A DNA stretch of 64,000 bases, from positions 66,400 to 130,399 of the forward strand of contig JAMWCW010000001.1 in assembly GCA_023819145.1 (NCBI GenBank), written 5' to 3'. Numbering within the stretch: the stretch's first letter is position 1; every line of letters starts with the position of its first letter. Position numbers and translations under genes: made by a program. Positions 3,906-30,838 of the stretch are shown here, piece after piece. The notes below the pieces were generated by a model, which saw only the letters and a program-made list of their open reading frames with translations, had not been told where the DNA came from and ran no database searches. This DNA comes from Candidatus Omnitrophota bacterium. GTDB lineage: Bacteria > Omnitrophota > Gorgyraeia > DTHP01.

Positions 3906-3912
3906 AACGCAG

Positions 3913-11253: not shown

Positions 11254-11325
11254 TGAGATTTGCTACTCTTAAAGAAATTATCTTGCGGCGAGAAATGATC
11301 ACAATTTTAAGGGGGAGGAAGTGAT

Positions 11326-13551: not shown

Positions 13552-13608
13552 ATTTTTTTGTAATATTTATATCTCCCTTTGGTTATAGATAATAGGGGGG
13601 CGAGAAAG

Positions 13609-14769
13609 ATGAAGAAATACTTAAGAATTAGAGGGATATTTATTTTAGTAGTATTTGTAGTATTTTTATTTACGCTTTTGATTCCTGTAAAACATTCCTT
13701 GGCTTATCCCAGGAGTTATCCTTATTTAGTTTCTAATTCATTACCAGCTTTTTCCGCGCGAGGGTTTAATGAAGCGCTCTTAGCGCGAGTTTTGCGCGAG
13801 ATTATCATTATCTATAAATTCTTGGCTCAAATCGAAAGGGTTCTTAATGAAAGAGGAGAAAATGATTTTCCATCTTTAGGTAGGGTCATCGGAGACAGAC
13901 CTCAGGAGAGAGAAAATTCCCAAAATACTCCCCCCAAAAGAAGTAATTTAAGGGAAGAACCTGCGGGTAACCGTCATCTAGACCCAGAAAATCCTTCGGC
14001 AAAACTACCAGAAGGGTCATCTTCGTCACCTGCTGGTTCTCTAGGAAAGATAAAGATTGCGATTATTGATATTGACTCTAAGCACGCCGCAGAAGTAAAG
14101 GCGGTAATGGAAGAGACAATTCGGCGTAAGAATCCCGGGGCAAAAGTAGAAATTCGTACCATTATTCTTCCTGGCAAATGGCAAAGGGATGGTTCTAAAG
14201 CGGTGGCTACCAGTGATATTTTAGACGCTTTTGCAGAAGCCAAAGCTTGGGGCGCAAAGGTAATCAATATGAGTATTGGTGCACAAGGAGGTGTAGACGG
14301 TATAGTGCTTAGTGCCTTACGCGACCTTTCTGAAAGTGGCATTCTGGTAGTAGCGGCATCAGGTAATGAAGGTAGTTATGATGCTTGGGGGCAAGCTGGC
14401 CGATATGTCTTATCAGTGGGGGTAAGAGGTGCACCTTATTCCAATACCGCTGATTTATATGTCGATTGGGGAGAGCTTCCACCTGGATTAGAAGGCACAT
14501 CTTTTGCTGCTCCGATTATTGCTGCGGAAGCGGCTTTAGCCTGGTTAGAAAACCCTTCCCTTAACTTGGCAAGTTTGCCTTCTCAATTAGGTTCACGGGA
14601 CACAGTTTATGCCCGGAGTAATCCTCCGCAAAGAAGTTCGCAGGGGTTTCACACTTCGGCAATAGAGTTTGTAAGGCCACCTGTTGTTTTTTATACGCCG
14701 GTGGAAGAAATGCCTTTTTACGAACAGAGTTTTTATTCGCCTGTTGGCTGTTTTCCGTCTTTTTGGTAA
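13609..14769 (+). CDS. subtilisin-like serine peptidase (S8 family), signal-anchored, no canonical HGTH motif seen
   Basis: AIIDIDS (Asp box), VINMSIGA, VAASGNEGS (oxyanion Asn), GTSFAAPIIAA (catalytic Ser box); start at ATG 13609 after RBS agggggg; N-term LRIRGIFILVVFVVFLFTLLIP; no RR motif after the hydrophobic segment. Confidence 0.55.
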   Translation: MKKYLRIRGIFILVVFVVFLFTLLIPVKHSLAYPRSYPYLVSNSLPAFSARGFNEALLARVLREIIIIYKFLAQIERVLNERGENDFPSLGRVIGDRPQERENSQNTPPKRSNLREEPAGNRHLDPENPSAKLPEGSSSSPAGSLGKIKIAIIDIDSKHAAEVKAVMEETIRRKNPGAKVEIRTIILPGKWQRDGSKAVATSDILDAFAEAKAWGAKVINMSIGAQGGVDGIVLSALRDLSESGILVVAASGNEGSYDAWGQAGRYVLSVGVRGAPYSNTADLYVDWGELPPGLEGTSFAAPIIAAEAALAWLENPSLNLASLPSQLGSRDTVYARSNPPQRSSQGFHTSAIEFVRPPVVFYTPVEEMPFYEQSFYSPVGCFPSFW

Positions 14770-14876
14770 TTTTTGTTTGTTTTCTTCTAAATAAAGGGGA
14801 CACTTACTACCGACTCTTCATTGGTTGTAAGAAAGTAAAAGATATTAAACTTGAATTCCGAGGAGGTATTATATAA

Positions 14877-16064
14877 ATGAAAAATAGTAGAGGAAAGATT
14901 TATGTTATGTTTTTGGGTTTGTTATTTTTCTTTCTTAACTCATTATTATATTTAGACTTATCTGCGGGATGCTCTTTCCGGCGAATCAAAACTCAACCTG
15001 CCAAAGAATCTGCGCTGGTGCTTTTTTTCCACGAATTAGGTAGAGAAGATATTTTTTTAGTGGGAGGAAAAGGGGCAAATTTGGGAGAACTTTCGCATAT
15101 TGCCGGGATAAGCGTTCCCGAGGGGTTTGTAGTTACCACCACCGCTTTTCAAAAATTTTTAGATGCCAACCCTGGATTACAAGATAAAATTATCAGGATT
15201 ATAAATAGTATAGATTGGGATACCCCTTCCAGTATAAACTCTGCTGCGGAAAAGATAAAAGAAGCGGTTTTGCGTGCGAACATGCCGCGAGAGATTATTG
15301 AGATGATTAAAGCAGGTTATGGCCATTTAGAAGAGATCTCCGGAATAAAGGATGTGCCCTGTGCTGTAAGAAGTTCGGGAGTTGCTGAGGATTCTCCTAA
15401 CTTTTCTTGGGCAGGTCAATTCCGCACTGAATTAAATCAGAGGGGAATATATCAGGTTTTAGAGGCGGTTAAATTAATCTGGGCAGAGTTGTATAATCCT
15501 GATGCCCTTACCTATGGACATCAGAATGGTATCGACCCGCGCAAATTTTCTATGGGAGTGGTAATTCAGCGGATGATAAATTCAGAGAAATCAGGAGTGG
15601 CTTTTGGACTGGAGTCCGATACAGGTTTTCGTGCCAATCCCGGAGGAATGGAAGGAGTTTTTTATATTGAAGGGGTTTATGGTTTAGGTGAAGGGATGGT
15701 GCAAAATATTCAAGAACCTGATGGATTTTTGGTAGTAAAGATGCCTAATGGTGAATTTAAAATTATTGAACGCATTTTCGGTTCCAAAAGAGAACAGATA
15801 GTTTATCGGTCTGGAATGAGTGGGACAGAGAAAACTTCGGTTCCCGAAGAATGGCGTCAGAGATGGGTTTTTTCAGAAGCAGAGGTGTTAGAGATTGCTC
15901 GTGCAGTTTTTGCCTTAAATAGCCACTATAATCATCCCCAGGATGTAGAATTTGCCTGGGAAGGAGGAAAACTATACATATTACAATCACGCAATGAGAC
16001 AGTTCATGCAGATAAACCAGTAGATTTAATTGAATGGAGAAAGTTTAGAATTAACCTTAAATGA
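14877..16064 (+). CDS. PEP synthase/pyruvate phosphate dikinase N-terminal nucleotide-binding (ATP-grasp) module, separate ORF, with RR leader
   Basis: LVGGKGANLGELSHIAGISVPEGFVVTTTAF matches PEP-utilising enzyme N-terminal signature; RBS gaggagg; leader VMFLGLLFFFLNSLLYLDLSAGCSFRRIKTQP. Confidence 0.75.
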   Translation: MKNSRGKIYVMFLGLLFFFLNSLLYLDLSAGCSFRRIKTQPAKESALVLFFHELGREDIFLVGGKGANLGELSHIAGISVPEGFVVTTTAFQKFLDANPGLQDKIIRIINSIDWDTPSSINSAAEKIKEAVLRANMPREIIEMIKAGYGHLEEISGIKDVPCAVRSSGVAEDSPNFSWAGQFRTELNQRGIYQVLEAVKLIWAELYNPDALTYGHQNGIDPRKFSMGVVIQRMINSEKSGVAFGLESDTGFRANPGGMEGVFYIEGVYGLGEGMVQNIQEPDGFLVVKMPNGEFKIIERIFGSKREQIVYRSGMSGTEKTSVPEEWRQRWVFSEAEVLEIARAVFALNSHYNHPQDVEFAWEGGKLYILQSRNETVHADKPVDLIEWRKFRINLK

Positions 16065-16083
16065 AAAAAGGGGGAGATAAATA

Positions 16084-18471
16084 ATGAAGTGGTTACATGT
16101 TAAAATTTTTTGGAGTATTGCCTTTTTAATTATTGCCAGCCTACTTTATGTTGATAATCTTTTTATGTTTTCTTCTTTAGATTTTATTACAAGAAGAGTA
16201 TTAACTCCTTCTTATACAGATTCTCCTTCGGTTGAGGTTCCCTCCGGTTCTCCTAAAATAATTGCCCGTGGAGAAGGGGTAGGTGCTAAAGGAGCGGGGG
16301 TAGGACGAGTGGTTATCATTGATGAAAATAGTTCCATCCCTATTCGTGAGCAGGCAATGCGTGTGCGCGAAGGAGATGTACTTGTTGCTTATCGCACCGA
16401 TCCTTCTTTGGTGGATGCCATGCGCCGAGCAGGTTTGGTGATTACTGAAATTGGAGGGAAAAATTCTCATGCTGCGATTGTCGCTAGAGAATTTAATTTA
16501 AATGCGGTTATTGGTGTGCCCAATGCTACGCGTATTTTTGCTCAAGGGCAGGTAGTTACTGTTGATGCTGAGCATGGAGTCATTTATGCTGGAGCTTTGC
16601 CGCTTGAAGAAGATAGTGTTTCCTATCGCGTGAGTGAACTTCCGTCTACGAGCCCTGTAAAGATAGGGATACTTTCCTTTGATACTGCTCGGGTGAGAGC
16701 GATGTTTCCTTTGGGTTTGTATTCTGATTTTTACGGTATAGGGCTGATGCGTGCAGAGTTTGCTTTACAAAATATTGGCATCCATCCGTTAGCAATATTG
16801 GATTTTGATAGAGGTACGCTTAGAGATGCAAGGCTACAAACAGAAATTACGCAAAAAATCAAAGGCTATGCGAGTGCGCGAGACTATTACATCTCAAAAC
16901 TTTCTTCTGCAATATTTTCCAATTCGCTTATTCTACATGAGGGGCAAAAGGTTATTTACCGCACCACTGATTTTAAAACCAACGAATATGAAGATATGTT
17001 AGGAGGGGATGTTTACGAGCATAAAGAGCCCAACCCCATGATGGGCAATCGCGGTTTACAGCGAATGATTAGTCCTGAATACCGGGAAGCATTTGATATG
17101 GAACTCGAAGCATTTTTACTTGCCTGGAAAGATAATCCGGGAAAGATTTCTATCATGGTTCCTATGGTACGCACTCCCCAAGACCTTCTGACTTTTCGTC
17201 AAATTCTTGAGGGAAAAATAAGGAGTATGGGGCTCTCGGGTATGCCTGAGGTAGTAATGATGTATGAATTGCCCGCGAATGTTTTTCAGATAGAGGAATT
17301 TATTCACGCCGGTATAAATGGTATTTCCATTGGTTCAAATGACCTGACACAATTTATTCTGGCAGTAGACAGGGACAGTGGTTTATTTAGAGAAGGAGGT
17401 AGAGAAGAATATGATGCCGTAAATAGAGCAGTATTGCGTGCTATCGGCATCGGTATAACTTCTTCTAAAGCCCGCGGTGTAAAAACAGGTATTTGTGGGC
17501 AAGCGCCATCAGACCATCCAGATGTTTATCCTGCAATTCTTACTGCTTTAGGAATAGATTCTATAAGTGTTACTCCCGATGTGTTTCATAAAGTGGTAGA
17601 AGCAGTAGCCCAAGCACAACAAAATCCTTCTTTTGGGATGAGATACCTTTCGGGTTTAGATTTATTTTTAGGCTACGATACCCAGACTAATCCCAAACGA
17701 GAATTAAAGAAGATAATTAGTTCTGATGATATACTTCGGAGTATTGGCATTCATCCTTTAGCCTTACTTGCCTTTGACCGGGGAAGTAGTTTATTGAGTG
17801 ATACGGCGATAAGTAGGCAGATTGTTTCTTTTGCCGGAGAAGAAACTGCAGAACGGGCTTACTTTGACCGTGTATATAGGGCGGTAAAGAATGCTTTACT
17901 TATGGATGGAGAGGTAGTTTATAGAACAGGAAGTTTGCTCAGTACCGATTATAAAACGCTTGTGGGAGGAGATATTTTTGAAAAAGAAGAAGCAAATCCC
18001 TTATTGGGTGCGTTTGGAATGTACCGCCTGCTCAGATATGGTTCAGAAGATGGCGCTTTGAGTATGCGTGATATTTTTAACATAGAGATGGATGCAGTTT
18101 TAAAAGCTGTGCGGGATACCGGTAAAGTTATTCATTTAGAGTTAGATATGGTGCGCACTTTTGGAGAATTACAGGAGGCAGTTTCTGTGATTAATGAGGC
18201 AATACGCCGTACAGGGATTTCTCCAGATAAGGTGAAAATTGGTCTAAATGTTTCTACTCCGGCAAATGTTCTGCTTATTTCTGATTTTATTAACCAAGGG
18301 AGATTAAGTTTTGTGAGTATCGACGAAAAAAGGTTAGCCTGTTATCTTTTGGGGGTGGATTCCTTGAGTATGGTTAGCCCCGAGGCTATTGAACGAGCCC
18401 TATATATACCTCGTCAACTGGTTTATACAGCATTAGCTCAAAAGGGAATCCCTTTAGTTAACTCCCCCTAA
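16084..18471 (+). CDS. PEP synthase/PPDK phosphohistidine swivel domain plus PEP/pyruvate-binding TIM barrel, followed by a degenerate second TIM-barrel copy, with RR leader
   Basis: GGKNSHAAIVAREFNLNAVIGV (mobile His domain), GLMRAEF, MVPMVRTPQD, SIGSNDLTQF (TIM-barrel motifs); second copy GIHPLALLAFDRG, LDMVRTFGEL, LSFVSIDEKRL lacks NDLTQ; leader IAFLIIASLLYVDNLFMFSS...FITRRVLTP. Confidence 0.75.
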   Translation: MKWLHVKIFWSIAFLIIASLLYVDNLFMFSSLDFITRRVLTPSYTDSPSVEVPSGSPKIIARGEGVGAKGAGVGRVVIIDENSSIPIREQAMRVREGDVLVAYRTDPSLVDAMRRAGLVITEIGGKNSHAAIVAREFNLNAVIGVPNATRIFAQGQVVTVDAEHGVIYAGALPLEEDSVSYRVSELPSTSPVKIGILSFDTARVRAMFPLGLYSDFYGIGLMRAEFALQNIGIHPLAILDFDRGTLRDARLQTEITQKIKGYASARDYYISKLSSAIFSNSLILHEGQKVIYRTTDFKTNEYEDMLGGDVYEHKEPNPMMGNRGLQRMISPEYREAFDMELEAFLLAWKDNPGKISIMVPMVRTPQDLLTFRQILEGKIRSMGLSGMPEVVMMYELPANVFQIEEFIHAGINGISIGSNDLTQFILAVDRDSGLFREGGREEYDAVNRAVLRAIGIGITSSKARGVKTGICGQAPSDHPDVYPAILTALGIDSISVTPDVFHKVVEAVAQAQQNPSFGMRYLSGLDLFLGYDTQTNPKRELKKIISSDDILRSIGIHPLALLAFDRGSSLLSDTAISRQIVSFAGEETAERAYFDRVYRAVKNALLMDGEVVYRTGSLLSTDYKTLVGGDIFEKEEANPLLGAFGMYRLLRYGSEDGALSMRDIFNIEMDAVLKAVRDTGKVIHLELDMVRTFGELQEAVSVINEAIRRTGISPDKVKIGLNVSTPANVLLISDFINQGRLSFVSIDEKRLACYLLGVDSLSMVSPEAIERALYIPRQLVYTALAQKGIPLVNSP

Positions 18472-18483: not shown

Positions 18484-18582
18484 GACCCCACCTCGTAGGT
18501 GTCCTTTTCACTGTATTGTAAGTTGTTTTTATATGGATACTTATGTGGGACGATTTTGGCCACCTACGAGGTGGGCACGGTT
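18484..18582. repeat. REP/BIME-like element: two inverted hairpin units (CCACCTCGTAGGTG / CACCTACGAGGTGGG) about 55 nt apart
   Basis: ccccacctcgtaggtgtcc 18486-18504 and ggccacctacgaggtgggcacggtt 18558-18582 are mutual reverse complements; the same units recur at 29475-29573 and 30283-30380 flanking a RAYT gene. Confidence 0.6.
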
Positions 18583-18948: not shown

Positions 18949-18977
18949 TTGACGATAAGAGAAAGATGTGATATAAT
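18949..18977 (+). promoter_or_regulatory. strong sigma70-like promoter TTGACG -17- TGaTATAAT (extended -10) for the giant YD-repeat gene
   Basis: TTGACG 18949-18954, extended -10 TGATATAAT 18969-18977; 25 nt upstream of ATG 19002. Confidence 0.5.
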
Positions 18978-19001: not shown

Positions 19002-22000
19002 ATGAATAAAATAATAAAAATGATAAATATGGAAAAGAAGAGAAAATATATTCTTATCTTTTTGGGACTATTTTTGCTTATTAGTGCCTATGTAGAGGCA
19101 AAGGTGCGTACTCAAGTAATTCGCAATAGCCCCGTCCCGGAAAGAAATGTGGGAATTATTCCTGAGGCGCGTTCGGTAGAAGACTGGGCACGGGTGAGAA
19201 CTCAGGTTATAAAAGAAACAGAAAGGAGAAACCGTCAAATAGAGACCAGCCAGAATCTTCCCGATAAAATGGAAGATAGCCGGAGAGAGACAGAAGAGGA
19301 ACGCCTCAAATCCGCTTACAAAATAGAAAAAGATGCTCGGGAGATGAAACAAAAAATAGAGCAGGCTTCTCCCAATGAGGTGGTAGGAGAAAATCCCGAT
19401 GGGACAAAATGGTATCAATACTCAGGAAGATTTGACATCTTCAAGAACTGGATAAAAAACAAACTCAAAGAACTTGGCCTCTTGGATAAATGGAAGGGTG
19501 AAAGTTTTGAGGAATTAGTTCAAAAATATGGTAAAACCAATTTTGACCTCACCTTCAACAAAAAATCTTGGTCTTATTTTGGTAAGCGCTCCTCGACTCT
19601 GCAAACCACAGAATTTCAATTTAGTTTAACCAATCCCGAAGATAATTTTGAAAAATATATTCAGACGCGCTCGCGTCAATTAATCTGGGATAGCGCCAAT
19701 AATCGCGAGGCAGAAATTGTGCAACATACTATAACCGATGAGATAGAATGGGCAGGTAAGTTCTATGGCACGCCGGGAAAAACCGAACAAGGAAGGCAGA
19801 TGCTTTCTTCTCGCCAGAGAACTTGGGATGAGACCAGGGGAACTTATTCTGAGGTAAACCAGAGAAATGTCTATGAAGGGAATTTCCATATGCCCATTAA
19901 GACCATCCGCAAGGTCTTTGAATCGGGCTACGATACTAAAGGCAATTACTATGAACGCCGATACGAGATGACCCGTGAGAATATTGAATGGGCGTGGGTT
20001 GTTTCAAGTGACCCAATTTCTGGCGGAAGTTATGAAACAAAGAGCTTTGACCAGACGATGATTGATTATTCCACGCCTGATAAAAAGACAATTTCCCACC
20101 ATGAGTTTACTTATACTGATGATGGAGTTCCGGAAAGTCAATTGATTGTTAGCCGAGAAGTTGGTTTAGGGCTAAATCATATTTCAGTAAGTTTAGAAAG
20201 ATATCTTGACTACTACAAAGATGGTTCTTTGCGCCAAGGACTGAGTCTTGATCTCACTGGTGATTTTCCTGACGTATATACCGCCGTAAAAGAAGGAAGA
20301 ACTTTACAGAATTTAATCAATAATAAAGAAACAAAGTCGCAAATCGAAGCACAGTTGGGACGCAGTTTAAACTTGAACAATCCTCAAGATTTAAAAATCT
20401 ATACCGCTTATCTGAGGGAAGGATTGGGGGAAACAGCAAGAAAAATCAGTTTGAGTTTTGCCGAGAAGAAACACAATGACAAAGCATTCCTTGCCTGGGA
20501 AAAAGAGACAGTTGCCATTGAAGGAAAAGATGAAAATGGGAGCCTGATTAGTTCTAGCAGTGAAATAGAAAAAACTTATACCCAGTTCTTACCCTTTGGT
20601 CAACCCACAGAGATTGAGCAACTGATAAGAAGCGAAGCCACACCAAATGTAGAAACAAAATTAAAGATTTCTTTAAAATACAACAAGTATTGTCAGGTAA
20701 CTGAACAGAGAACCGAAACGCGAGAAACAAGCCTTGATGGCAAACTTAATAAACACACGATAAGCATAAAAGATAAAATTGTTTACAATGGTTTAGGACA
20801 GGAAATTTCCTATCGTGAGCGAGAAGAAGAATATGATATAGATGGAAAGCGCATTGGCAATCGTGAAACTTTAGTAAAAAATATTACCTATAATGAAGAT
20901 GGCTTGCAGACCGGTTACGAGATGCAGAGCATAACCAGAGGAATTGATACTCATGATGGAAGTATTTTTGAGATAATTACTGAAACAAAAGTGCGCGATA
21001 TCCGATATAATGAATTGGATATGCGTATATCCTGGAAGGAGATAAGTATAGATTTAAGCAGAAGCCCGGGATTAATTAGTGAGAGAATGTATCAGGTAAA
21101 GGCAATAGATGAATTTGGAAGAATTACGGAGATAGATATAAAAGAACACACTTATGGCACTGCTTCCGATGGAACCTCTCTAAATACTGAACGCACCATT
21201 AACCGCAAGATAAAATACAACTCTTTAGGTCAGGAAGAAGAGGCAATTGAGGAGGTAATTGAGAAGGCAAAGACCACTATCTCAACCATTAAATATGCCT
21301 ATGACCAGTATGGGAGAATTTCGCGCGAAGAAAGAAAAGTGCATGTAACGGGGAAAGATGGAGATAGCGAATTGGACTATACTTATACTCTATTGCGCTA
21401 TGGATTTGAGTACAATGATGCAGGACTTCTACAGAGATATAAGGCTAAAATCCGGAATGAATCTACAGCCGATATAGAAATAACTCAGGAGGTAGAGATT
21501 GGCTATGACAGTCTGGGAAGAGTAGATTATCAGAAGACTCAAGTCTGGGAAGATACGCGAAGCGGAGATAAGGCCTTACACAAATACACACTTACCGTAA
21601 GGGAAAACATTACCTATAATGAATTAGGATTAGAGACAGCTTATACTGAAACAGAGGAGGAATTTGATGAAGATGGAAAACGCATTGGCAATCGTAAGGT
21701 TAAGGTAAGTAACATTACTTATAATGAAGATGGTTTGCAGACTGGTTATGACATGGCGGTAATAGTAGAAGGGACTGATACCCATGACGGAAGTAGTTTT
21801 GAAACCTTTACCGAGATTAAAGTGCGCGATATTCGTTACAACAATTTAGGCATCCGCATTAGTTGGAGAGAAACCACCATAGATACAAGTAGGAGTCCAG
21901 GATTAACTACCGAAAGAAAATACGCGGTTACAGAGATAGATAGGTTTGGTAGACCTATAGAGCTTATAATCAATGAGCATGCTTATGGCTCTGCTTCTGA

Positions 22001-23138
22001 CGGGACAAGTTTAGATACCTTCCGCAAGATTACACGCCAGATAACCTACAATTCTTTAGGTCAGGAAGAGGAAATTACTGAAACCGTAGAAGAAGGGGCA
22101 AAGAAAACCACTTCCAAGATTAAGTACGAATACGATGAATGTGGCAGGATTAAATATGAAGAAAGAAATATTCATGTAGAGGGCGAAGAAGAGGGGGTTG
22201 AGTTGGATTATATTTCTACAATAAGGCGTTATGGATTTAAATACAATGATGCAGGGCTTGTACAGGGCTATACGGCAGAAATCTGGAACGAGTCCAGTCC
22301 CGACTTAGAAATAAAGCAGGAGGTAGAATTTGGCTATGACAGTCTGGGAAGAATAGACTATCAACGAAGCGAAACCTGGGAAAAGGGAATAAGTAAAAAG
22401 CGCGATAAACATGGTGAACCTACAGGCGAGGAAGAAGAGGTTGAACGGCATACAATTTCTGAGAAATATGATATCCAATATAATGAATTGGGCTTGGAAA
22501 CTTATTATAAAACCGATAGAAAAGAATACGAGGATGGAGAGTTAATCCGCGATGTTACCGAGACCACTTCGGGAATAAGGTATGATAGTAAGGGAAGAAT
22601 GACTGAATACACCACCCATAGAACTGGTCAAGAGAGATTCCTTGAAGACAGTGGAGAATATGGGGAATTAAAGAGTGTAAATATTACTACCCATATTTAC
22701 AACATTACCTATGTTGATGGTCTGGATTTAAGAAAATCCTGGAGAGAAGAAATTTCTGGTTATATAGGGGGACAGGAATTTAAGGCAAGCACCCGTCAAT
22801 ATGAAATCTTAGAATTTGACCGCTTTGGAGAAGTGGTAGATATAAATATTGAAGGAGATGGAGTGGAGGAGGAAAATTCTGCTCCTCAGATTGATACGCG
22901 GGGAACAACTTCTGGCCCAGAAGTTAATCAGACCACCAGACCTTACTCTCCGACAGGTTCAATAAAGACAACAAGTGTTCGTCGGGGACCAGTAAGAGGT
23001 TTAGGAGTGCGCGGAAAAAGTAGAACTTATGCAAAAAGACCTTCCGGAATAAGTCTTTTGAGTAGTGAATCCAGTCAGCGTAAGAAATTAGAAGAGGAAG
23101 CAGAATATATTACGCCAGATAAAGAAGAAGAAAAATAG
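19002..23138 (+). CDS. giant secreted YD-repeat (Rhs/teneurin-type) protein, 1378 aa, with two near-identical ~290-aa tandem super-repeats
   Basis: Signal peptide YILIFLGLFLLISAYVEA; YD-type units ITYNEDGLQTGY, YAYDQYGRISREE, YEYDECGRIKYEE, IGYDSLGRVDYQ; super-repeat from about aa 598-888 repeated at 889-1170 (nt about 20790-22510); alternative start at ATG 19029 (MEKKRK) is possible. Confidence 0.6.
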   Translation: MNKIIKMINMEKKRKYILIFLGLFLLISAYVEAKVRTQVIRNSPVPERNVGIIPEARSVEDWARVRTQVIKETERRNRQIETSQNLPDKMEDSRRETEEERLKSAYKIEKDAREMKQKIEQASPNEVVGENPDGTKWYQYSGRFDIFKNWIKNKLKELGLLDKWKGESFEELVQKYGKTNFDLTFNKKSWSYFGKRSSTLQTTEFQFSLTNPEDNFEKYIQTRSRQLIWDSANNREAEIVQHTITDEIEWAGKFYGTPGKTEQGRQMLSSRQRTWDETRGTYSEVNQRNVYEGNFHMPIKTIRKVFESGYDTKGNYYERRYEMTRENIEWAWVVSSDPISGGSYETKSFDQTMIDYSTPDKKTISHHEFTYTDDGVPESQLIVSREVGLGLNHISVSLERYLDYYKDGSLRQGLSLDLTGDFPDVYTAVKEGRTLQNLINNKETKSQIEAQLGRSLNLNNPQDLKIYTAYLREGLGETARKISLSFAEKKHNDKAFLAWEKETVAIEGKDENGSLISSSSEIEKTYTQFLPFGQPTEIEQLIRSEATPNVETKLKISLKYNKYCQVTEQRTETRETSLDGKLNKHTISIKDKIVYNGLGQEISYREREEEYDIDGKRIGNRETLVKNITYNEDGLQTGYEMQSITRGIDTHDGSIFEIITETKVRDIRYNELDMRISWKEISIDLSRSPGLISERMYQVKAIDEFGRITEIDIKEHTYGTASDGTSLNTERTINRKIKYNSLGQEEEAIEEVIEKAKTTISTIKYAYDQYGRISREERKVHVTGKDGDSELDYTYTLLRYGFEYNDAGLLQRYKAKIRNESTADIEITQEVEIGYDSLGRVDYQKTQVWEDTRSGDKALHKYTLTVRENITYNELGLETAYTETEEEFDEDGKRIGNRKVKVSNITYNEDGLQTGYDMAVIVEGTDTHDGSSFETFTEIKVRDIRYNNLGIRISWRETTIDTSRSPGLTTERKYAVTEIDRFGRPIELIINEHAYGSASDGTSLDTFRKITRQITYNSLGQEEEITETVEEGAKKTTSKIKYEYDECGRIKYEERNIHVEGEEEGVELDYISTIRRYGFKYNDAGLVQGYTAEIWNESSPDLEIKQEVEFGYDSLGRIDYQRSETWEKGISKKRDKHGEPTGEEEEVERHTISEKYDIQYNELGLETYYKTDRKEYEDGELIRDVTETTSGIRYDSKGRMTEYTTHRTGQERFLEDSGEYGELKSVNITTHIYNITYVDGLDLRKSWREEISGYIGGQEFKASTRQYEILEFDRFGEVVDINIEGDGVEEENSAPQIDTRGTTSGPEVNQTTRPYSPTGSIKTTSVRRGPVRGLGVRGKSRTYAKRPSGISLLSSESSQRKKLEEEAEYITPDKEEEK

Positions 23139-23395: not shown

Positions 23396-26300
23396 ATGAA
23401 AAAGACAAGATTTTTACTAAACCGGGCCGGGGGAATTTTAATACTTTTCTTAATTTTGGCTTTTACAAAGCCGGGAGAGGGATTATTTTTTACTGGTGAT
23501 GACCCTACTCAATACCATATGAGTACTGGATGCGGGATGTATGGTAATGGTTGTAATGCTTTTGGGGATCAAGAACGGCAAACTCCAGGCTTACTGAGGC
23601 AAATGAGTTCGTCACCGGCGTCTATTCAATTTAAGGACGGAATTCCAGTGACAGGGGATTCAGTGAGGTGGTCTCTTTTCGATCTGGATAATGATGGTAA
23701 TGTTGATTGTTATATAGATGAAAGTGGAAATAGATATTTAAAAACTATAACCTCAGATGGCATAATAACAGGTTATATTTTAGCAAAAAATCTTGAAAAT
23801 GGAGATTTAGATGTTCAAGTATATGGATATACTCAAACTTCAGGTTATTTTCCTATAATTCCTATAGAACCACTTGATCACACAGAACAGAATACTCAGG
23901 TAGTTGAAACACAATACCGTTTAGTGGCACATTTTAAAGTAGACCAAGCCGCTGGGCTTAATTCTTTAATAAAAGCTATTTTAGATGATACTCGCCTGCA
24001 ATCATTCCTTCAAAAATTTGATCCCAATATGAATAGTATGCTTAATGTGGGTGGCCAACAACTGAAGTTAGTTGAAAGTTTTACATATAACGATACAGAC
24101 TCTGAATGGAATAAAAATGACCAGGAGGAAAAATATTACTCCTCTATAAATGGATATTTAAAAAGGGAGGTAATTTCTGGAAAGGAATATTATTATGTCT
24201 ATAATTCCGACTATACCTTAGCTGCGCGCTATACAAAAGATACTAGTGGTGATATCACAAGCTTGACATTTATTACTCCTTCTGGAGGAGCTTTTGAGCG
24301 AGGTAAGTTAATTAGTGGGACTGAATATGAATTATCCGGGGCTTCCTTGGGGTATCTGAAGGGCTTATCGGAACTCTCGCTAAATATAAATAATATAGGT
24401 TCTTTAATGGAAAAATCTGCAATAATAGCGGGAACCTCATGGCTTAAGTTAGGCGAAAACCACTATTTTCAGCTTAAAAAAGGAACAATTGAGCAGGTAG
24501 TAACTGTAACTGTAGCAGACGATGGAAAATCTTCTTCTTTAACTTTGCAAAGGCTCAAATTGGAAGATGATAAATTGGTAGTAGTAAATGGTCAGTCAAT
24601 AACTGTTTCCAACGCGCTTTTAACTGGCAAGTTGCCAAGCGGATACTTAGATTCCTCAATTACTTCCCCTAAAGTCTTAGACCTTATTTTAAAAGGAGCC
24701 TCCATAGATTACACTCATCAGAGAATTTATTTTGATTATACAGGAAAGACTTATGCTTATGATGTTACTGGAGAAGGCTTACAGTATTATTATGTTTATT
24801 ATATGGGCGGAGGAAATACATTACCATTATTACAAATTTATGGTCCTGATACTAATATAACAACTGAAAACCCTGATTTAACTTTAACTGTGCCACAAGA
24901 ATTAAAAATCACTAATTTTACTTTTAATGTTAAAGGAACTAGCGCTACATTATCTTTCCAAGCAGATGGTAAAGAATACACATATAACCTTCCTACTAGT
25001 AAAAATGGTTCTTTTACCTTGAGTATTGATCCCCAAGCCACTGGTGCAGGGGTAATTGCACCTACTATTAAAATACTACCACCCGCATTAAGCGAGGAGC
25101 AAAAAAGATGGATTGCTAGTATTTTGGGTCTAGAAGACGATCCGGGTGGTCGAACAGCCGTACAACAATTGGATAATTTATTGGGAGATTCCCAAAATTA
25201 TTTTGTAACTGGTAATTATTTTGGGATTCAATCAGGAGAGAGTATTTTTATATTTAATACTTCCTCACTAAGTGCAGGTAGTAGATATCTTAAATTTGAT
25301 GGTAAAAATCTAATAATTAATGAGGGTACTACAACTATAACTATAGGAGATTTCGCTAAAGTTTTAAAGAGTCTAGGATTCTCTGCTTGGCTGGATGCTT
25401 TTAAATCTATGGAGGAAGATTCTCTGAGGACCCTTTTTGGACTAAATCCGAGCAATTCAGCCAATTTCACACTTGCCTTTGAGAAGATTATTACTGAGGC
25501 GCAGAAAGAGTTTTATAATTTCTCGTTTGAGAAAGACACAAGTGGTAGTAATTATTCGCCTAGGGGATATGCTAAGGCTATGTTGGATAATTCCCGATCT
25601 GTTGTTGTTGTTGAGTTTTATATTAGTGATGGGGATAGTTTCACCAAAGTTTTAGGATTTGATAGACCTACATTACTGCAAATATTAGATAGATCAGAAA
25701 CCTTTGAAGGCTTGTATGAAAAAGCTAAGGGATTTGTCAGGAATATTAGTTATGTAAAAAGGTTAGATGGAACTTATGTTTGGGTATGTAGTATAGGTAA
25801 TAAGTTTGTTCAATTTTATTCTATTGGAGGAGGAAGTGAATGGTGGGCATTGGCTGTTGATGCTACTGGTGATGTTACTGTATATGATAGCGGATGGGAG
25901 ATAAAATATACAATTGCTAAAATAGAGTTAGAATCGTCACCATCACCAAGCGTTGATTTAGTAAAAAGCCTAATTTTTGATGAGCAAACATTGCATCTTC
26001 TTCGGTTAAGTATAGAGCAAAGAGGAGACGGTGGTGTAACAGGTGTAACAATCCAAAGAAACAAAATAGAAGTGTGGGAACTGAAAAAAGCTTCGGCGAA
26101 TAGTAATGCGTTAAAGAGGATAGAAAAATTTACTTTGCTTGGAGAGGAATCTGTGGTAGCAGGAAGGGCGACCCCACTTGATCCAGAGCCAGTTATTGAA
26201 TTCGGCAGTAGAAAAATAAAGGAAATCCAATTTACCAATTTTGCGGGGATGGTAACCTTCGCTCGAGGAATTAGTTTTAAGACTCAGGGTGATAAAAGTT

Positions 26301-29300
26301 ATCTGATTTTAGGAGGAAAAATTTATGAGCTTTCTTTAGCAGAAGATGGATCAATCTTTACAATTAGCCAAACTCCTATTATTACGATTGAGCAACAAAC
26401 TTGGGAAGCAATAAGAACACTTATTGCTTACGAGCGGACAAATACTGGAAGTGTAACTGGCCCGAGTGCAATTGGCTGGGCTGATATTAGTATAGTAATA
26501 GAAAAAGAGGACAAAGTGTACTTTGAGGTGCCAGTGAAATCAATTGATGAGGGAAGATATGTATTGAGATTTGATAGTAAGGGACAATTAATTAAGAGAG
26601 ATGGTGCAGTATTGAGTTTTACTCCCACAGATTCAGATGAATCCCAAAAAGCAGAAAGCTTTAAAACATTTTTGCAAAATAATGTAGGCAATCTTCCTTT
26701 ATCTGCAGCAGGCAAAGCCTATGAGAGATTTTGTTCACAGTTGGCAATTGCTGGTGTGGCTAAAGTAGATTGGGAGATATTTCTTCGTAGCTGGAATGAA
26801 GGGGCAAAAACTCTTGAAGGCTTTAGTGACCCCGGATGGGGTGGGGGACTTAGTAGGAGCGAACTTATCGCGGCATTGGAGCTTAGTGATGAGCAGAAAC
26901 AACAGCAGTTGCGTAGAATTGAGGCTACAGATATAAATGGGTTTAATAAATATCTTTATATTGATGACAAGGGAAATATAGTTTATGTAGAAGAACTACC
27001 TGATCCCTCGAAAGGAAAATATAAAGGATATTTATTAAGGTATCAGTGGAATGATTCTGCTAATCCTCCGGAAGCGAATATTTCTGGAGTATTGGTAGGA
27101 GCTATGCAGCGTTCAACTTCACAAAATGTTTTATCACAAAATGTTTTATATGGAATAGTAGCAGAGGTTGATAATGGTGGGGGTTATGTAAAATTGAATG
27201 ATAAAGGATTTGAATTAAATTTAAATATTATATTTAAAGGTAATAACAAGGGGTATGAGAATCTTTTTGATTTTGAAACATACAAAATCGAAATCAAGGT
27301 TAGTAGAGTGGATAATACATTGACGCAGGTAGAAACAACGAATTGGGCTAATTCTAATGCGCAAAGATGGTATACGAGCTCTACCATTACTACAGTAGTA
27401 GGGCTACTGGAGGATGGGAAATTTGAAAAAAAGCGAGAAGAAAGGGTATTAAAAAATAATGAGGGGGAGCAAGAAACAATCACTTTTCCTGAATTTGATG
27501 GAAAAGGCAACCCCACTAAAAAACAGGTGCATTCTTTGAGGAAAGTCGATATTGAGGGTTGGGAATGGAGAGAGGATAATTATACAGAGACAGGAACTCT
27601 TAACAGTAATCAACAATGGGTGAGGAAAGGTTATGAACCTAATACTCAAAGGACAATTAAGCTAAGTAGAGGAAATGGGGATTATCTACAGCAGGAGTAC
27701 TCTATAGATGGAAATGGAAAAGCAATCAGATGTGTTATTGAGGAAAAAAGAGGTTCGGTAACTGCCAAAGTAGAAGAAGAAGTAGTAGGTGAAGGGGATT
27801 TATTATTCTTAGGAGAGAATACACAACTTACCTTGAATATTAATGGAGATAGGATAGATCCCAAAACAGGACAAACGGTAAGTGTAAGTGGCAATAATGT
27901 AGTAAGGTCTGTTTATGTATTTAAGGACGAAGAGGTGGCAGCACTTAAACAGCAGGGCTTAACCATAAGGGCTGGTATTCCTTATATCCTTGATAAATAT
28001 GAAGATGGTTCGTTTAGAATATATACCGCATTTGTAGAACAAACATATCTTGATGCACAAGGAAAACCTAAAGCGTATTATGTGGCTGGAGAATATGTAG
28101 GAACCCTTGGTTCAAAAAAAGCCAGTGACGGTGCCAGTGGCGGAGGCGGTGGAGGAGGTGGAGGAGGTGGAGGAGGTGGACCGGCAGGAAGTGACAAAAT
28201 TCCTCCTTCACAAATAGCTAATCAGGATACAGGAGAGATTGTTGGTGGTATGGAAGGGCAATTAGATGGTTTTGTGAAAAGAAGCTATCCTGAGAGAGTA
28301 GAGGAATTAGCTCATACTTATCGGGCAATGGGTCCGGGAATGAAGGAGAGAGCACTTTCTATAAACGATAGAGATAGTGCCAGAATATATCTATTGGGGA
28401 GATTTCTTTCCAGAGATAAAATTAAACAAGTTCTTTCGGTTCTTAAAAATAAGAATCTTTCTATTGAGGAAAAACGCGCTTTACTTAAGAAACTGGGGCT
28501 TTCGGATAAATTGCTTGACTTACTCCTTAATGGTGATGAAGAAGCATTAATTAAAGAAGCTCAAAAAATGCTCCTTAAGGATTTCGGGCTTTCTGATGAG
28601 GAGATTGAAGAATTCTTCAAGAGCAGTGATAAAAAAGGATATTTGCAGAAGAAAGGACTTTCTGATGAACGCATTGAGGCGGTAATGGAGATAACAGATT
28701 TAGAGAAGGCTCAAGAGGCAATCCTTAATCAGGAGGCAGTTTTGGAAGAGTTGCTCAGTGAGGAAGAGAAAGCACTTATGGAGGAGCTTTTTGCTTTGTT
28801 AGAGGAATATACCGGATTTATTAGTGATGAAGAGTATGCGGAATTAAGGGAGATTTTGGTAGATTTGGGGCTTTCTGAGGAGACCATAGATGATTTAATA
28901 GGTAAAAATGCGGATGAGTTTATGAATAGTCAGTTGCGGAATTGGGCAATGATGGATGAGAAAAATATTCTTGAATTGGCAAGGATGCTTTTCTTTGATG
29001 AAGACTTAAAGTTAGATAAATGGACTGCGGAGTTTATTGTAAAAGGTGATGAGTTTATGGTAAATGAGCTCTTAAGTAAAATTAGACAAGCAGTAAAAGA
29101 GTATCTTGAAGAGTATTGGGGTAAAGAGGTCAGTGAAGAAGAAGTTAAAGGTTTGGATGAGGCGACTAGAGAGAAAATTGCCGATGCTTTACTGCAAGCG
29201 ATAGGTAGAGGAGGACTTACGCTGGAAAATGCTTCTAAAAAAGTAAAGGAAATTCTTGCAGAGATTATCCCTTTGAAGGAAGCGAAAGAGGAGAAGAGCC

Positions 29301-29443
29301 CTATTCAGCCAGCACCTTCTCCGGAACCGTTACAGCCACAATCTCTTGCTGCGGTAAGTATTCAGGGTAACTGGAGGAGCAAAAATAATGATGATGATAT
29401 TCCGCGGTTGTTAAGAGAAAAAAATGAACTCAGAAGCAGATAG
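23396..29443 (+). CDS. giant secreted protein, 2015 aa, with Gly15 run and C-terminal acidic helical GLSDE-repeat region
   Basis: RBS aaaaggaggg; signal peptide ILILFLILAFTKPGEG; GGN-codon run 28138-28185 encoding G15; repeated GLSDEEIE / GLSDERIE / GLSEETID motifs about 28460-28890; no recognisable catalytic motif. Confidence 0.55.
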   Translation: MKKTRFLLNRAGGILILFLILAFTKPGEGLFFTGDDPTQYHMSTGCGMYGNGCNAFGDQERQTPGLLRQMSSSPASIQFKDGIPVTGDSVRWSLFDLDNDGNVDCYIDESGNRYLKTITSDGIITGYILAKNLENGDLDVQVYGYTQTSGYFPIIPIEPLDHTEQNTQVVETQYRLVAHFKVDQAAGLNSLIKAILDDTRLQSFLQKFDPNMNSMLNVGGQQLKLVESFTYNDTDSEWNKNDQEEKYYSSINGYLKREVISGKEYYYVYNSDYTLAARYTKDTSGDITSLTFITPSGGAFERGKLISGTEYELSGASLGYLKGLSELSLNINNIGSLMEKSAIIAGTSWLKLGENHYFQLKKGTIEQVVTVTVADDGKSSSLTLQRLKLEDDKLVVVNGQSITVSNALLTGKLPSGYLDSSITSPKVLDLILKGASIDYTHQRIYFDYTGKTYAYDVTGEGLQYYYVYYMGGGNTLPLLQIYGPDTNITTENPDLTLTVPQELKITNFTFNVKGTSATLSFQADGKEYTYNLPTSKNGSFTLSIDPQATGAGVIAPTIKILPPALSEEQKRWIASILGLEDDPGGRTAVQQLDNLLGDSQNYFVTGNYFGIQSGESIFIFNTSSLSAGSRYLKFDGKNLIINEGTTTITIGDFAKVLKSLGFSAWLDAFKSMEEDSLRTLFGLNPSNSANFTLAFEKIITEAQKEFYNFSFEKDTSGSNYSPRGYAKAMLDNSRSVVVVEFYISDGDSFTKVLGFDRPTLLQILDRSETFEGLYEKAKGFVRNISYVKRLDGTYVWVCSIGNKFVQFYSIGGGSEWWALAVDATGDVTVYDSGWEIKYTIAKIELESSPSPSVDLVKSLIFDEQTLHLLRLSIEQRGDGGVTGVTIQRNKIEVWELKKASANSNALKRIEKFTLLGEESVVAGRATPLDPEPVIEFGSRKIKEIQFTNFAGMVTFARGISFKTQGDKSYLILGGKIYELSLAEDGSIFTISQTPIITIEQQTWEAIRTLIAYERTNTGSVTGPSAIGWADISIVIEKEDKVYFEVPVKSIDEGRYVLRFDSKGQLIKRDGAVLSFTPTDSDESQKAESFKTFLQNNVGNLPLSAAGKAYERFCSQLAIAGVAKVDWEIFLRSWNEGAKTLEGFSDPGWGGGLSRSELIAALELSDEQKQQQLRRIEATDINGFNKYLYIDDKGNIVYVEELPDPSKGKYKGYLLRYQWNDSANPPEANISGVLVGAMQRSTSQNVLSQNVLYGIVAEVDNGGGYVKLNDKGFELNLNIIFKGNNKGYENLFDFETYKIEIKVSRVDNTLTQVETTNWANSNAQRWYTSSTITTVVGLLEDGKFEKKREERVLKNNEGEQETITFPEFDGKGNPTKKQVHSLRKVDIEGWEWREDNYTETGTLNSNQQWVRKGYEPNTQRTIKLSRGNGDYLQQEYSIDGNGKAIRCVIEEKRGSVTAKVEEEVVGEGDLLFLGENTQLTLNINGDRIDPKTGQTVSVSGNNVVRSVYVFKDEEVAALKQQGLTIRAGIPYILDKYEDGSFRIYTAFVEQTYLDAQGKPKAYYVAGEYVGTLGSKKASDGASGGGGGGGGGGGGGGPAGSDKIPPSQIANQDTGEIVGGMEGQLDGFVKRSYPERVEELAHTYRAMGPGMKERALSINDRDSARIYLLGRFLSRDKIKQVLSVLKNKNLSIEEKRALLKKLGLSDKLLDLLLNGDEEALIKEAQKMLLKDFGLSDEEIEEFFKSSDKKGYLQKKGLSDERIEAVMEITDLEKAQEAILNQEAVLEELLSEEEKALMEELFALLEEYTGFISDEEYAELREILVDLGLSEETIDDLIGKNADEFMNSQLRNWAMMDEKNILELARMLFFDEDLKLDKWTAEFIVKGDEFMVNELLSKIRQAVKEYLEEYWGKEVSEEEVKGLDEATREKIADALLQAIGRGGLTLENASKKVKEILAEIIPLKEAKEEKSPIQPAPSPEPLQPQSLAAVSIQGNWRSKNNDDDIPRLLREKNELRSR

Positions 29444-29472: not shown

Positions 29473-30380
29473 CTGCCCACCGCGTAGGTGGGCATTTTTT
29501 CTTGACATAAGCTTATAAATTTGCTATATTTATTATAGAGTTTAAGGGACACCTACGCGGTGGGATAGGTTTTATTAATTATAGGAGAGTATAAAGAAGT
29601 TAACGAGAGTTAAGGAGAAAAAATGAGAAAGAATTTTCTGGCAGTAGGAGAAATTTATCACGTGTTGAATAAAAGTATTGCGGGTTTTCAGATTTTTAAC
29701 GATGAAGATGAATATCAGCGAATGGCTGGGCTTTTTGCCTATTATCAAAAAGAGAATCCTCCAGTTAAGTTCTCTAAGTATTTAAATTCCAATAAAAAAG
29801 GTTCTGAGGGGGAGAATACAGGAAATAAATTAGTGGAAATTATCGCCTATTGTCTTATGCCTACCCATCTTCATCTCTTATTGAGACAGATGAAAGAAGA
29901 AGGGATTTCTCTTTTTATGGGAAATGTTTTAAATAGCTACACCCGCTATTTTAATACCCGACATAAGCGCAAAGGACCTCTCTGGGAGGGTAGATTTAAA
30001 AGAATTCAAGTAAAAACCGAGGAAAATTTATTGCACCTTACCCGCTATATCCATCTTAATCCGGTTACAGCGTATCTGGTGAACAAGCCCGAGGATTGGC
30101 TTTTTTCTTCTTATCGAGAGTATTTAGGTCAGGTTGATGGTAAGGAGAAAATTTGCAATTTTGAAGATTCTTTAGAGATAGGCCCTGACTATAAAGAATT
30201 TGTGGAAGATAGAATTTCTTACCAGAGAGAACTTGCTCAGATTAAAGATTTAATAGTTGAAAACCTCTCCACCTAAACCTTAGACCACCTCGTAGGTGTC
30301 CTAAATCGATGATTATAAGTGTAAGAAATTATGTAGCTTATGATGAAGGAAATAGACCACCTACGAGGTGGGTACGGTTT
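29473..30380 (+). mobile_element. REPtron: RAYT gene flanked on both sides by REP/BIME hairpin pairs; the upstream pair contains a terminator-like hairpin and an embedded promoter
   Basis: gcccaccgcgtaggtgggc+TTTTTT (29475-29500) then ggacacctacgcggtgggataggtttt (29547-29573); TTGACA 29502-29507 -17- TATATT 29525-29530 between the units; downstream pair gaccacctcgtaggtgtcc 30283-30301 and gaccacctacgaggtgggtacggttt 30355-30380. Confidence 0.65.
29623..30276 (+). CDS. REP-associated tyrosine transposase (RAYT, IS200/IS605 Y1 HuH family)
   Basis: HuH motif AYCLMPTHLHLLL, LWEGRFKRIQV, catalytic-Tyr region LTRYIHLNPVTAYLV, WLFSSYREY; 217 aa; RBS aaggag. Confidence 0.8.
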   Translation: MRKNFLAVGEIYHVLNKSIAGFQIFNDEDEYQRMAGLFAYYQKENPPVKFSKYLNSNKKGSEGENTGNKLVEIIAYCLMPTHLHLLLRQMKEEGISLFMGNVLNSYTRYFNTRHKRKGPLWEGRFKRIQVKTEENLLHLTRYIHLNPVTAYLVNKPEDWLFSSYREYLGQVDGKEKICNFEDSLEIGPDYKEFVEDRISYQRELAQIKDLIVENLST

Positions 30381-30439
30381 ATAACGGTAGGAAAAGGAAG
30401 GAAGAAGAGGAAAGGTAAGTGAGAGGAGGAAAGAGGGAG

Positions 30440-30838
30440 ATGAAAAAAAGAATTCTGTTTTTGGGGATGGTTGGAGTATTATTGAGTTTTGTTTCTTGTG
30501 GAAAGGCAAAAGAGGAAGTTTACGAATCAGAGACAAAGGCAAGCGAAGAGGTGAAAATAGCTATGGTAGAGGAGGGAGAAATGGCCCAGAAACCTGAACT
30601 AAAATATGTGGAAGGAGAGCTTTTAGTAAAGTTTAAACCCGAAGTTTCTGCAGAAGAGATAATTACGATCCTCAAAGACGAATATCAATGCGAGATTATT
30701 GATATTATAAAAGGATTAGATGTTTACAGGATAAAAATGCCCAAAGGAAAAACTGTCCCCGAGATGGTGGAGTTATTGAGTAAAGATGAACGGGTGAAAT
30801 ACGCCGAACCTAACTATATCTATCGCTTACAGATGTAG
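30440..30838 (+). CDS. small lipoprotein with subtilase-propeptide (inhibitor I9)-like domain
   Basis: Signal MKKRILFLGMVGVLLSFVSC (lipobox-like); LLVKFKPEVSAEEI...VYRIKMPKG...VKYAEPNY resembles peptidase inhibitor I9 / subtilisin pro-domain ending in YAEPNY; ORF track starts at GTG 30419. Confidence 0.4.
   Translation: MKKRILFLGMVGVLLSFVSCGKAKEEVYESETKASEEVKIAMVEEGEMAQKPELKYVEGELLVKFKPEVSAEEIITILKDEYQCEIIDIIKGLDVYRIKMPKGKTVPEMVELLSKDERVKYAEPNYIYRLQM

Follow-up and report, generated by a model that had tools for sequence, protein, structure and literature searches.

An Omnitrophota protein with a predicted Rhs-like hairpin ribbon and without toxin-delivery hallmarks

The DNA analysed here (the window) comprises 64,000 nucleotides of contig JAMWCW010000001.1 from a Candidatus Omnitrophota bacterium, is AT-rich (ca. 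38% GC) and carries nearly all of its genes on the + strand. The open reading frame (ORF) at 19002-23138 of this strand encodes a protein of 1378 amino acids (aa) that corresponds to hypothetical protein NC818_00260 of a Candidatus Omnitrophica metagenome-assembled genome (MAG). The reading that we favour, to which we give somewhat better than even chances, is that this divergent, Rhs-like protein without a toxin has a structural role, as a shell, tube or scaffold, and would work together with a neighbouring subtilase and with a giant protein encoded downstream.

Seven relatives of the protein were found among 5.8e9 clustered proteins, those with names all being from Omnitrophota, and the same 7 proteins were retrieved with the single sequence and with the family alignment (profile) as query. 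In a set of 185,579 genomes, one per GTDB species, 3 loci were detected, all of them in Omnitrophota. An exhaustive hmmsearch of 1.84e9 representative proteins rendered 32 proteins; beyond the close family only the repeat region is matched (profile positions ca. 290-1040), the N-terminal 360 aa (profile positions 1-400) being confined to the close family. The distant relatives, with lengths of 0.1-8 kaa (thousand aa), belong to uncultivated bacteria, and those bearing names are Elusimicrobiota MAG proteins. With respect to the closest orthologue (P0002, 72% identical overall), the ratio of nonsynonymous to synonymous substitutions (dN/dS) is 0.09 for the whole protein, 0.07-0.08 for the folded regions and 0.57 for the C-terminal tail. 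The gene is real, conserved, under purifying selection and confined to a few Omnitrophota. To judge from these searches the protein represents a separate, uncatalogued sequence family that is not covered by Pfam, and a recent (2026) preprint on complete Omnitrophota genomes makes no mention of this family.

Predicted fold and sequence class

AlphaFold2 models were obtained for aa 118-1292 (pLDDT 84.8, pTM 0.67) and for the two super-repeats described below, aa 612-1176 (pLDDT 91.4, pTM 0.84). The models consist of 59-62 antiparallel strands of 8-23 residues arranged in uninterrupted hairpins, with 16 strands per super-repeat, together with a small alpha/beta cap and, at aa 425-475, a single insertion of three helices (DSSP assignment). 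A comparison of both models with the PDB by means of Foldseek rendered strong matches (E < 1e-6) exclusively to Rhs, TcB-TcC, YenBC and teneurin-2 structures, with E-values from 1e-18 to 5.5e-7 and probability 1.0:

Rhs core of the type VI secretion system (T6SS), 8qja, E 1e-18 and 4e-13
Teneurin-2, 9g2f, E 4e-10
TcB-TcC, 6suf and 6h6g
YenBC, 4igl and 5kis

The next matches, to barrels and WD40-like proteins, had E-values of ca. 5e-5 or weaker. The match to a YD-shell fold, on which the initial annotation had made its assignment to the YD-repeat proteins depend, was therefore found with both models. In our reading, the predicted hairpin ribbon is of the same class as those of the Rhs, Tc-toxin and teneurin YD shells, but has longer hairpins and coils differently as a whole. 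Since a fold search against BFVD gave only weak matches to MORN-repeat and tail proteins, a relationship to viral proteins was rejected.

At the sequence level the picture is a different one. No match of the protein to RHS_repeat (PF05593), TIGR01643 or the RHS core was obtained at E <= 1 with Pfam and NCBIfam, which gave only sub-threshold noise (OmpA_membrane and DUF7432), while Escherichia coli RhsA, included in the same scan as a positive control, matched RHS_repeat with E 1.5e-68 in 11 stretches, and also the RHS core, DUF6531 and a toxin domain. Eleven distant relatives were scanned as well, with no match to Pfam RHS_repeat. Searches of the PDB sequences with phmmer and with the family profile (hmmsearch) produced chance matches alone, to ZapD and CASTOR, and at E <= 10 the profile retrieved none of the Rhs, Tc and teneurin sequences. 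When the family profile was aligned to RhsA with hhalign, the probability was 1.1%; the sole alignment returned pairs the YD motif, YEYDECGRIKYEER with YRYDEKGRLTGER. The full YD signature, YxYDxxGR[LI], appears twice (aa 765 and 1042), once in each super-repeat, and a degenerate form, Y[ND]xxG, appears 17 times, at predicted hairpin loops and with a median spacing of 34.5 aa, a spacing that is also seen in the distant relatives. Because no curated model is matched under conditions in which RhsA scores 1.5e-68, the protein falls, by sequence, outside the curated YD/Rhs families. Its designation as a YD-repeat protein thus stands in so far as YD motifs are found at the hairpin turns and the predicted fold is of the Rhs class, but not as regards membership in RHS_repeat or TIGR01643 or detectable similarity to RhsA.

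The features that characterise the Rhs toxins are also missing. The core terminator PxxxxDPxGL is not present in any member of the family, and the shorter motif DPxG is absent from the protein and from five other members, with a single DPLG in P0005. No Pfam match to the RHS core/aspartyl autoprotease (PF03527) was found, the RhsA control having one, and neither Pfam nor NCBIfam revealed a recognisable toxin domain, including in the tail at aa 1291-1378, where no sorting signal was recognised either. PAAR, DUF6531, VgrG-binding, TcB beta-propeller and FN-plug modules were not found with Pfam, and the model shows no propeller. The initial annotation had already remarked on the lack of both the core terminator and a C-terminal toxin, and had concluded that this is not a typical polymorphic toxin; the motif search and the domain scans bear out both statements. 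Without the Rhs aspartyl autoprotease, the core motif and a C-terminal toxin, the protein cannot work as a toxin-encapsulating, toxin-releasing cocoon.

A proposed structural role and its alternatives

According to the reading that we favour, the protein would be exported by the Sec pathway, a charged linker following the signal peptide, and the mature chain (aa ca. 180-1285) would fold into one continuous ribbon of ca. 60 long antiparallel strands, that is, ca. 30 hairpins, one edge of which would be stitched by Y-[N/D]-x-x-G turns. The ribbon grew by an ancient tandem duplication of a 16-strand module of 277-288 aa. It would serve the cell envelope or surface as a shell, tube or scaffold, and would represent, as a protein of its own, what has been predicted inside giant Omnitrophota proteins as RHS-like antiparallel beta-helix "tubules". 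It may act together with the neighbouring secreted S8 subtilase, which could possibly process it, and with the downstream giant protein. Of this scheme, the analysis shows the reality of the gene and its purifying selection, the anatomy and age of the repeats, the class of the fold, the lack of toxin hallmarks and the conserved synteny; we infer that the protein is exported and has a structural role, that the ribbon closes or forms a tube, and that it cooperates with the S8 protease and with the giant protein.

A number of points weigh against it. The AlphaFold2 models were built on only 7 sequences, and repetitive all-beta queries can inflate Foldseek E-values. The TM-scores to the Rhs/YD shells are 0.09-0.20, with root-mean-square deviations (rmsd) of 22-40 Å; such scores do not show the same closed-shell architecture. 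Sec-type export is deduced from the -3/-1 rule, a sequence pattern. The association with the S8 gene is one of adjacency, and no S8 match that would indicate a fusion was detected with Pfam in the 11 distant relatives. The likeness to the published tubules is one of description, and the single helical insertion of the protein differs from the regularly spaced exterior helices of the tubules. Finally, the proposed function is drawn from the absence of toxin features and not from a positive functional signal.

Repeated beta-hairpins that turn at an aromatic-x-x-G motif are a typical trait of cell-wall-binding repeats. It could therefore be the case that the protein is an adhesin or ligand-binding hairpin array, with no shell or tube, that binds a polymer such as the cell wall of a prey or host or a polysaccharide, in the way of the clostridial and choline-binding cell-wall-binding repeats or the MORN arrays. 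We regard this as unlikely, although it is the alternative that fares best. Hairpin repeats with turns of that kind are present, the BFVD search gave weak matches to MORN-repeat proteins, the protein is acidic, hydrophilic and, by its N-terminal sequence, apparently secreted, and copy number differs among orthologues. Moreover, a predatory or epibiotic life has been proposed for Omnitrophota, with giant proteins that target cell walls (bioRxiv 10.1101/2023.11.21.568195). However, no Pfam match to CW_binding, MORN or a carbohydrate-binding module was found, and Foldseek favours the Rhs-type shells (E 1e-18, versus 1e-4 or weaker for MORN). In addition, an rmsd near 30 Å against compact shells suggests that the model too is compact and not a straight ribbon of ca. 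290 Å.

Less probable still, in our opinion, is that the protein is a true Rhs/YD polymorphic-toxin cocoon that has diverged greatly, with a closed shell in which the basic tail of 88 aa would be the cargo, or from which the toxin module has been lost. That the top structural matches are exclusively Rhs, Tc and teneurin shells, that the canonical YxYDxxGRI motif is present, and that the ribbon of ca. 1100 aa approaches the size of the T6SS Rhs core (8qja, ca. 1020 aa) would all agree with it. Against it stand the absence of RHS_repeat, TIGR01643, RHS-core and trafficking-domain (PAAR, VgrG, DUF6531 or beta-propeller) matches, the hhalign result, the lack of PxxxxDPxGL in the family with DPxG limited to one member, and TM-scores not above 0.2. 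Moreover, the next gene encodes a secreted protein of 2015 aa and not a small immunity protein, and the tail, disordered and fast-evolving as it is, is not polymorphic in the sense of the toxins.

A very large outer-membrane beta-barrel or translocon-like protein was also considered, and appears very improbable. It would be suggested by the organisation in antiparallel strands with short turns between them, by the weak Pfam match to OmpA_membrane (E 7.9e-4, under the curated cut-off) and by low-probability Foldseek matches to LptD, TonB-dependent receptors and TOM40, but these last are at least 10 orders of magnitude weaker than the Rhs matches. The chain is hydrophilic and acidic, with a grand average of hydropathicity of -0.93 and 12% Glu; the two faces of the strands have mean Kyte-Doolittle values of 0.0 and -1.6, so that neither is hydrophobic, and their amphipathic signal, ca. 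1.5 standard deviations from a shuffled control, does not rise above that control. No terminal beta-signal was recognised, the C-terminus being a disordered, charged tail. An outer-membrane barrel was rejected because the chain is hydrophilic and its strands lack amphipathicity.

Anatomy of the protein and age of the super-repeat

The organisation of the ORF, with the array delimited by means of a hidden Markov model (HMM) built on the super-repeat unit, is as follows:

18949..18977, + strand, promoter-like site TTGACG-17 nt-TATAAT with TG extension, best site of the region (11/12 matches)
19002..23138, + strand, whole ORF, ATG to stop, 1378 aa
19002..19097, + strand, predicted signal peptide, aa 1-32, with n-region KKRK, hydrophobic run YILIFLGLFLLISAYV and a cleavage-type site between VEA and K
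19098..19361, + strand, linker very rich in charged residues, aa 33-120 (E 16%, R 15%, K 9%), outside the structure models
19362..20450, + strand, family-specific N-terminal region, aa 121-483, with a small alpha/beta cap followed by beta-hairpins leading into the repeat array
20451..20834, + strand, degenerate partial copy, aa 484-611 (unit positions 149-288, domain E 3.4e-10)
20835..21665, + strand, super-repeat copy 1, aa 612-888, 16 strands (8 hairpins)
21666..22529, + strand, super-repeat copy 2, aa 889-1176, 16 strands (8 hairpins)
22530..22871, + strand, last part of the beta ribbon, aa 1177-1290, with a degenerate partial copy at aa 1177-1285 (domain E 1.1e-05)
22872..23138, + strand, tail, aa 1291-1378 and stop, basic, S/T/G/P-rich, with an acidic end, fast-evolving

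The two super-repeat copies align in BLASTP with E 4e-108 and 58% identity over 288 columns. The strings quoted in the initial annotation are found where each copy carries its version, ITYNEDGLQTGY at aa 628 and 905, and YAYDQYGRI at aa 765 with its counterpart YEYDECGRI at aa 1042. The existence of a tandem super-repeat is therefore well founded, but its description as near-identical, 60-70% identical, recent and recombination-prone, with boundaries at 598, 889 and 1170, requires correction. Protein identity between the copies is 58-61%, and DNA identity is 66% in the codon alignment or 70.5% over 715 nt in blastn, falling to 49% at third codon positions; Nei-Gojobori estimates are ca. 2.2 for dS, which is saturated, and 0.30 for dN. 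The longest exact DNA run common to both copies is of 23 nt, and Tandem Repeats Finder detected no long-period DNA repeat in the ORF. With so short a shared run and saturated divergence, the super-repeat, which is real, is an implausible substrate for homologous recombination. The boundaries are at 612, 889 and 1176, and the array is flanked by the degenerate partial copies at aa 484-611 and 1177-1285.

Comparison with P0002 gave 78% identity between first copies and 78% between second copies, versus 61% between the two copies of the protein studied here. Because each copy is nearer to the matching copy of P0002 than to its sister copy, the duplication is ancient, older than the split of the two orthologues. 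Copy number, as determined with the unit HMM, is one full copy in P0006 and P0007 and ca. 1.7 copies in P0003, P0004 and P0005. That the super-repeat might be an assembly artefact, a collapsed or expanded repeat, can practically be discarded in spite of the source being a MAG with the protein on a single contig, since about 34% of the nucleotides differ between copies with no more than 23 identical bases in a row, so that short reads would place the copies unambiguously, since the identities to P0002 are copy-specific, and since the two-copy layout of P0002 is kept in independent ENA and JGI assemblies (5 contigs).

The N-terminus of the ORF has the classical layout of a signal-peptidase I substrate (basic KKRK, a 17-aa hydrophobic run and VEA before K), and small residues at -3 and -1 are retained in the orthologues (AES, VEA), in agreement with the secreted 1378-aa product described in the initial annotation. 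The ORF starts in a low-complexity tract of the AAT/AATAATA type (19002-19031) with three in-frame ATGs, corresponding to M1, M7 and M10. Because all the orthologues align from M10, translation may in fact begin at 19029, the ATG of that residue, and the annotated product is probably 9 residues too long. The promoter-like site, which resembles a sigma-70 promoter by match to the consensus, lies 25 nt upstream of the first ATG. The N-terminal region (aa 121-483), which in the AlphaFold2 model includes the three-helix insertion (20274-20426), holds the most invariant columns of the family alignment. At the other end, the tail of 88 aa has an isoelectric point of 9.6 and is disordered. In another Omnitrophota locus, L005 (MAG JBBIPY010000007, 9950-14316), the orthologue appears as an overlapping pair of ORFs (749 and 746 aa), an apparent frameshift on a contig of ca. 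6x coverage that could be a sequencing error or the mark of a pseudogene.

Gene neighbourhood, leader motifs and related systems

The neighbouring genes relevant to the proposed role are the following:

13579..14769, + strand, secreted S8 subtilase-like gene, with the GTSFAAP serine motif and the AASGN region conserved
23396..29443, + strand, downstream secreted protein of 2015 aa, a conserved neighbour with no domain matches
30419..30838, + strand, lipoprotein-like stand-alone subtilase prodomain (Fervidolysin_NPro-like, E 2.3e-16), position conserved in L001

The S8 protein matches the subtilase model over its central and C-terminal parts only, and the catalytic motifs around Asp and His are not clear-cut in it. 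Its gene lies directly upstream of the orthologue in loci L001, L005 and L006, and both this gene and that of the prodomain keep their positions around the target gene in L001. In the window, two PPDK ORFs intervene between the S8 gene and the target, and these are absent from that place in L001, L005 and L006. They represent a split PPDK, with the ATP-grasp N-terminal part at 14877-16064 and the mobile plus PEP-utilising C-terminal part at 16084-18471, each half having its own hydrophobic leader and RR motif.

A gene for a giant protein is found downstream in the window, L001 and L003. In the window it is that of the 2015-aa protein, whose Glu/Lys-rich helical C-terminal region (aa 1600-1958) is 62% identical to the product of the gene downstream of P0002 and weakly similar to a 2556-aa product encoded downstream of P0005. 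Its first ca. 1500 aa, including the middle, are hypervariable, and a run of 14 glycines lies near aa 1580. It is not a paralogue of the target, which is the only ORF of the window to match the family profile. A role as a TcA-like partner was rejected, there being no TcA-related Pfam or PDB match, and its PDB matches correspond to the glycine run, which resembles the linkers of single-chain variable fragments. The corresponding region of L001 is divided between two genes, one of 1310 aa and an fn3-containing one of 971 aa. Further downstream in the window follow an IS200/Y1-type transposase-like gene, the prodomain lipoprotein, a 254-aa protein and a TolC-HlyD-AcrB-AcrB set, all conserved in L001.

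An Rfam scan of the whole window gave no match. Three copies of a REPIN-like element were observed, at 18487-18575, 29476-29564 and 30284-30372. Each consists of two inverted 15-nt arms, CCCACCTCGTAGGTG, situated 59 nt apart, each arm being a small palindrome; the 15-mer has 6 matches versus 0.04 expected, and one copy bears a compensating change in both arms (T>G, A>C). Two of the copies flank the IS200/Y1-type (RAYT-like) transposase gene at 29623-30276, which is syntenic in L001, and the third lies between genes, upstream of the target; copies of the element thus bracket the target and the giant gene.

Upstream of the target, a distinct kind of leader is common. Twelve ORFs of the window, 11 of them at 287-13551 and 14877-18471 and the other at 60162-61886, have a hydrophobic N-terminal segment followed, ca. 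8-25 residues later, by the motif x-RR-aliphatic-K/R, in the variants RRIKTQ, RRIKTH, RRSKQ, RRLRS, RRAKN, RRIHR, RRVKW, RRTKI, RRVLT, RRVKS and RRIPS. Every large ORF of the stretch 287-18471 carries such a leader except the subtilase gene, and the proteins concerned include a methyltransferase, PGK, GAPDH, class-II aldolase, PFK, an aminotransferase and both PPDK halves; several of the enzymes have extensions of 100-400 aa ahead of the enzyme domain. Orthologues from two other Omnitrophota genomes (L001 4427-8477 and L005 1299-8248) retain the RR, and ordinary lipoproteins and secreted proteins of the window do not have it. The leader could anchor these normally cytoplasmic enzymes in the membrane, in keeping with the positive-inside rule, or could be a new signal for their sorting or processing. 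Nothing was found in the literature on leader-bearing or membrane-anchored glycolytic enzymes in Omnitrophota.

The charged linker of the target does contain, just past the signal peptide, the duplicated motif noted in the initial annotation (KVRTQVI, aa 34-40, 19101-19121, and RVRTQVI, aa 64-70, 19191-19211), which had been likened there to the RRIKTQ leader as a hint of a common recognition system. The conserved cores, however, differ. In the family of the target the core is VRTQ[VI], the pair being conserved in 4 of the 7 members and in L005, where it appears as SAVRTQVI and NVRTQV and lacks a basic residue ahead of the core; P0005, P0006 and P0007 have no VRTQ motif. No twin arginine occupies the leader position, 8-15 residues after the hydrophobic segment, in the target (AKVRTQ, ARVRTQ) or in the orthologues (RGVSTQ, SRVRTQ, SRLQTQ, SAVRTQ), and RR is extended to IKTQ or IKTH in only two proteins of the upstream block. 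In favour of the likeness, the post-hoc pattern [KR][VIL][KR]T[QH] was observed 5 times in comparison with 0.1 expected, always within the first 90 residues. A shared recognition system of the VRTQ motif and the RR leader is thus weakly supported by these sequence patterns. The only independent instance of the pattern in the window was noticed in a small lipoprotein at 49207-49659 (lipobox LFSGC), with QRLRTQIG at aa 30-37.

A bolder proposal, which we consider improbable, is that an undescribed envelope or surface apparatus, specific to Omnitrophota, is made up of the S8 subtilase, the prodomain lipoprotein, the giant protein and the ribbon protein, the last building a hollow tube or sheath. 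The subtilase would then recognise the basic-aliphatic-basic-T-Q motif as a site for processing or sorting of the convertase type, with cleavage between VR and TQ in the target and between RRIK and TQ in the leader-bearing glycolytic enzymes. If true, this would tie the ribbon protein to the unexplained leader-peptide system on PGK, GAPDH, aldolase, PFK and PPDK. Apart from that proposal, the pairing with an S8 gene and, where downstream sequence exists, with a giant gene points to candidates for a surface apparatus in a phylum that is suspected of a predatory or epibiotic life.

For annotation, the protein should not be recorded as an Rhs toxin, nor its repeat, which is old and stable, as a hotspot for recombination or copy-number artefacts. 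It defines a small family outside Pfam of Rhs-like hairpin-ribbon proteins without toxin-delivery machinery and, on the reading of a structural shell, tube or scaffold, would indicate that the ultra-small, uncultivated Omnitrophota also employ the Rhs/YD architecture as a structural module by itself.

With the shells of Rhs, Tc and teneurin (8qja; 6h6g and 4igl; 9g2f) the protein would share a long single antiparallel hairpin ribbon with Y-D/N-x-x-G(R)(L/I) at the hairpin turns. It departs from them in its hairpins, of ca. 34 aa versus ca. 21 aa, in its organisation as a 16-strand super-repeat, in the lack of a curated-model match, autoprotease, PxxxxDPxGL, toxin, immunity gene and PAAR, VgrG, propeller or plug module, and in TM-scores that do not exceed 0.2. 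With respect to the Tc (ABC) toxin complexes, its neighbourhood has no TcA-type partner, as judged by Pfam and PDB sequence, and its model has no TcB beta-propeller. A predicted secretion signal is common to the protein and to the extracellular YD proteins of the WapA and teneurin types. Bacillus subtilis WapA has repeats that are detectable with RHS_repeat, a C-terminal tRNase toxin and an adjacent immunity gene; the target resembles WapA and other Sec-secreted YD wall proteins in its N-terminal Sec-type signal and long YD-type hairpin array, and lacks those three features.

The closest parallel may be found within the same phylum. West-Roberts et al. (bioRxiv 10.1101/2023.11.21.568195) described, in giant Omnitrophota proteins, antiparallel beta-helix tubules of ca. 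1500 aa that they noted as resembling RHS proteins, with exterior alpha-helices regularly interspaced, and some of the giants have N-terminal S8 peptidase domains (bioRxiv 10.1101/2023.11.21.568195). The target would have in common with them, besides the phylum, more than 1000 aa of continuous, predicted antiparallel beta structure and RHS-like features, and the association with S8, which in the giants is a fused N-terminal domain, is here with a neighbouring gene. The repeat region also matches proteins of 5-8 kaa from uncultivated bacteria. While the tubules are segments of proteins of >10,000 aa, the target is a stand-alone protein of 1378 aa, so that it could serve as a tractable 1.4-kaa model for RHS-like tubules, which so far have been predicted only inside giants too large for direct study.

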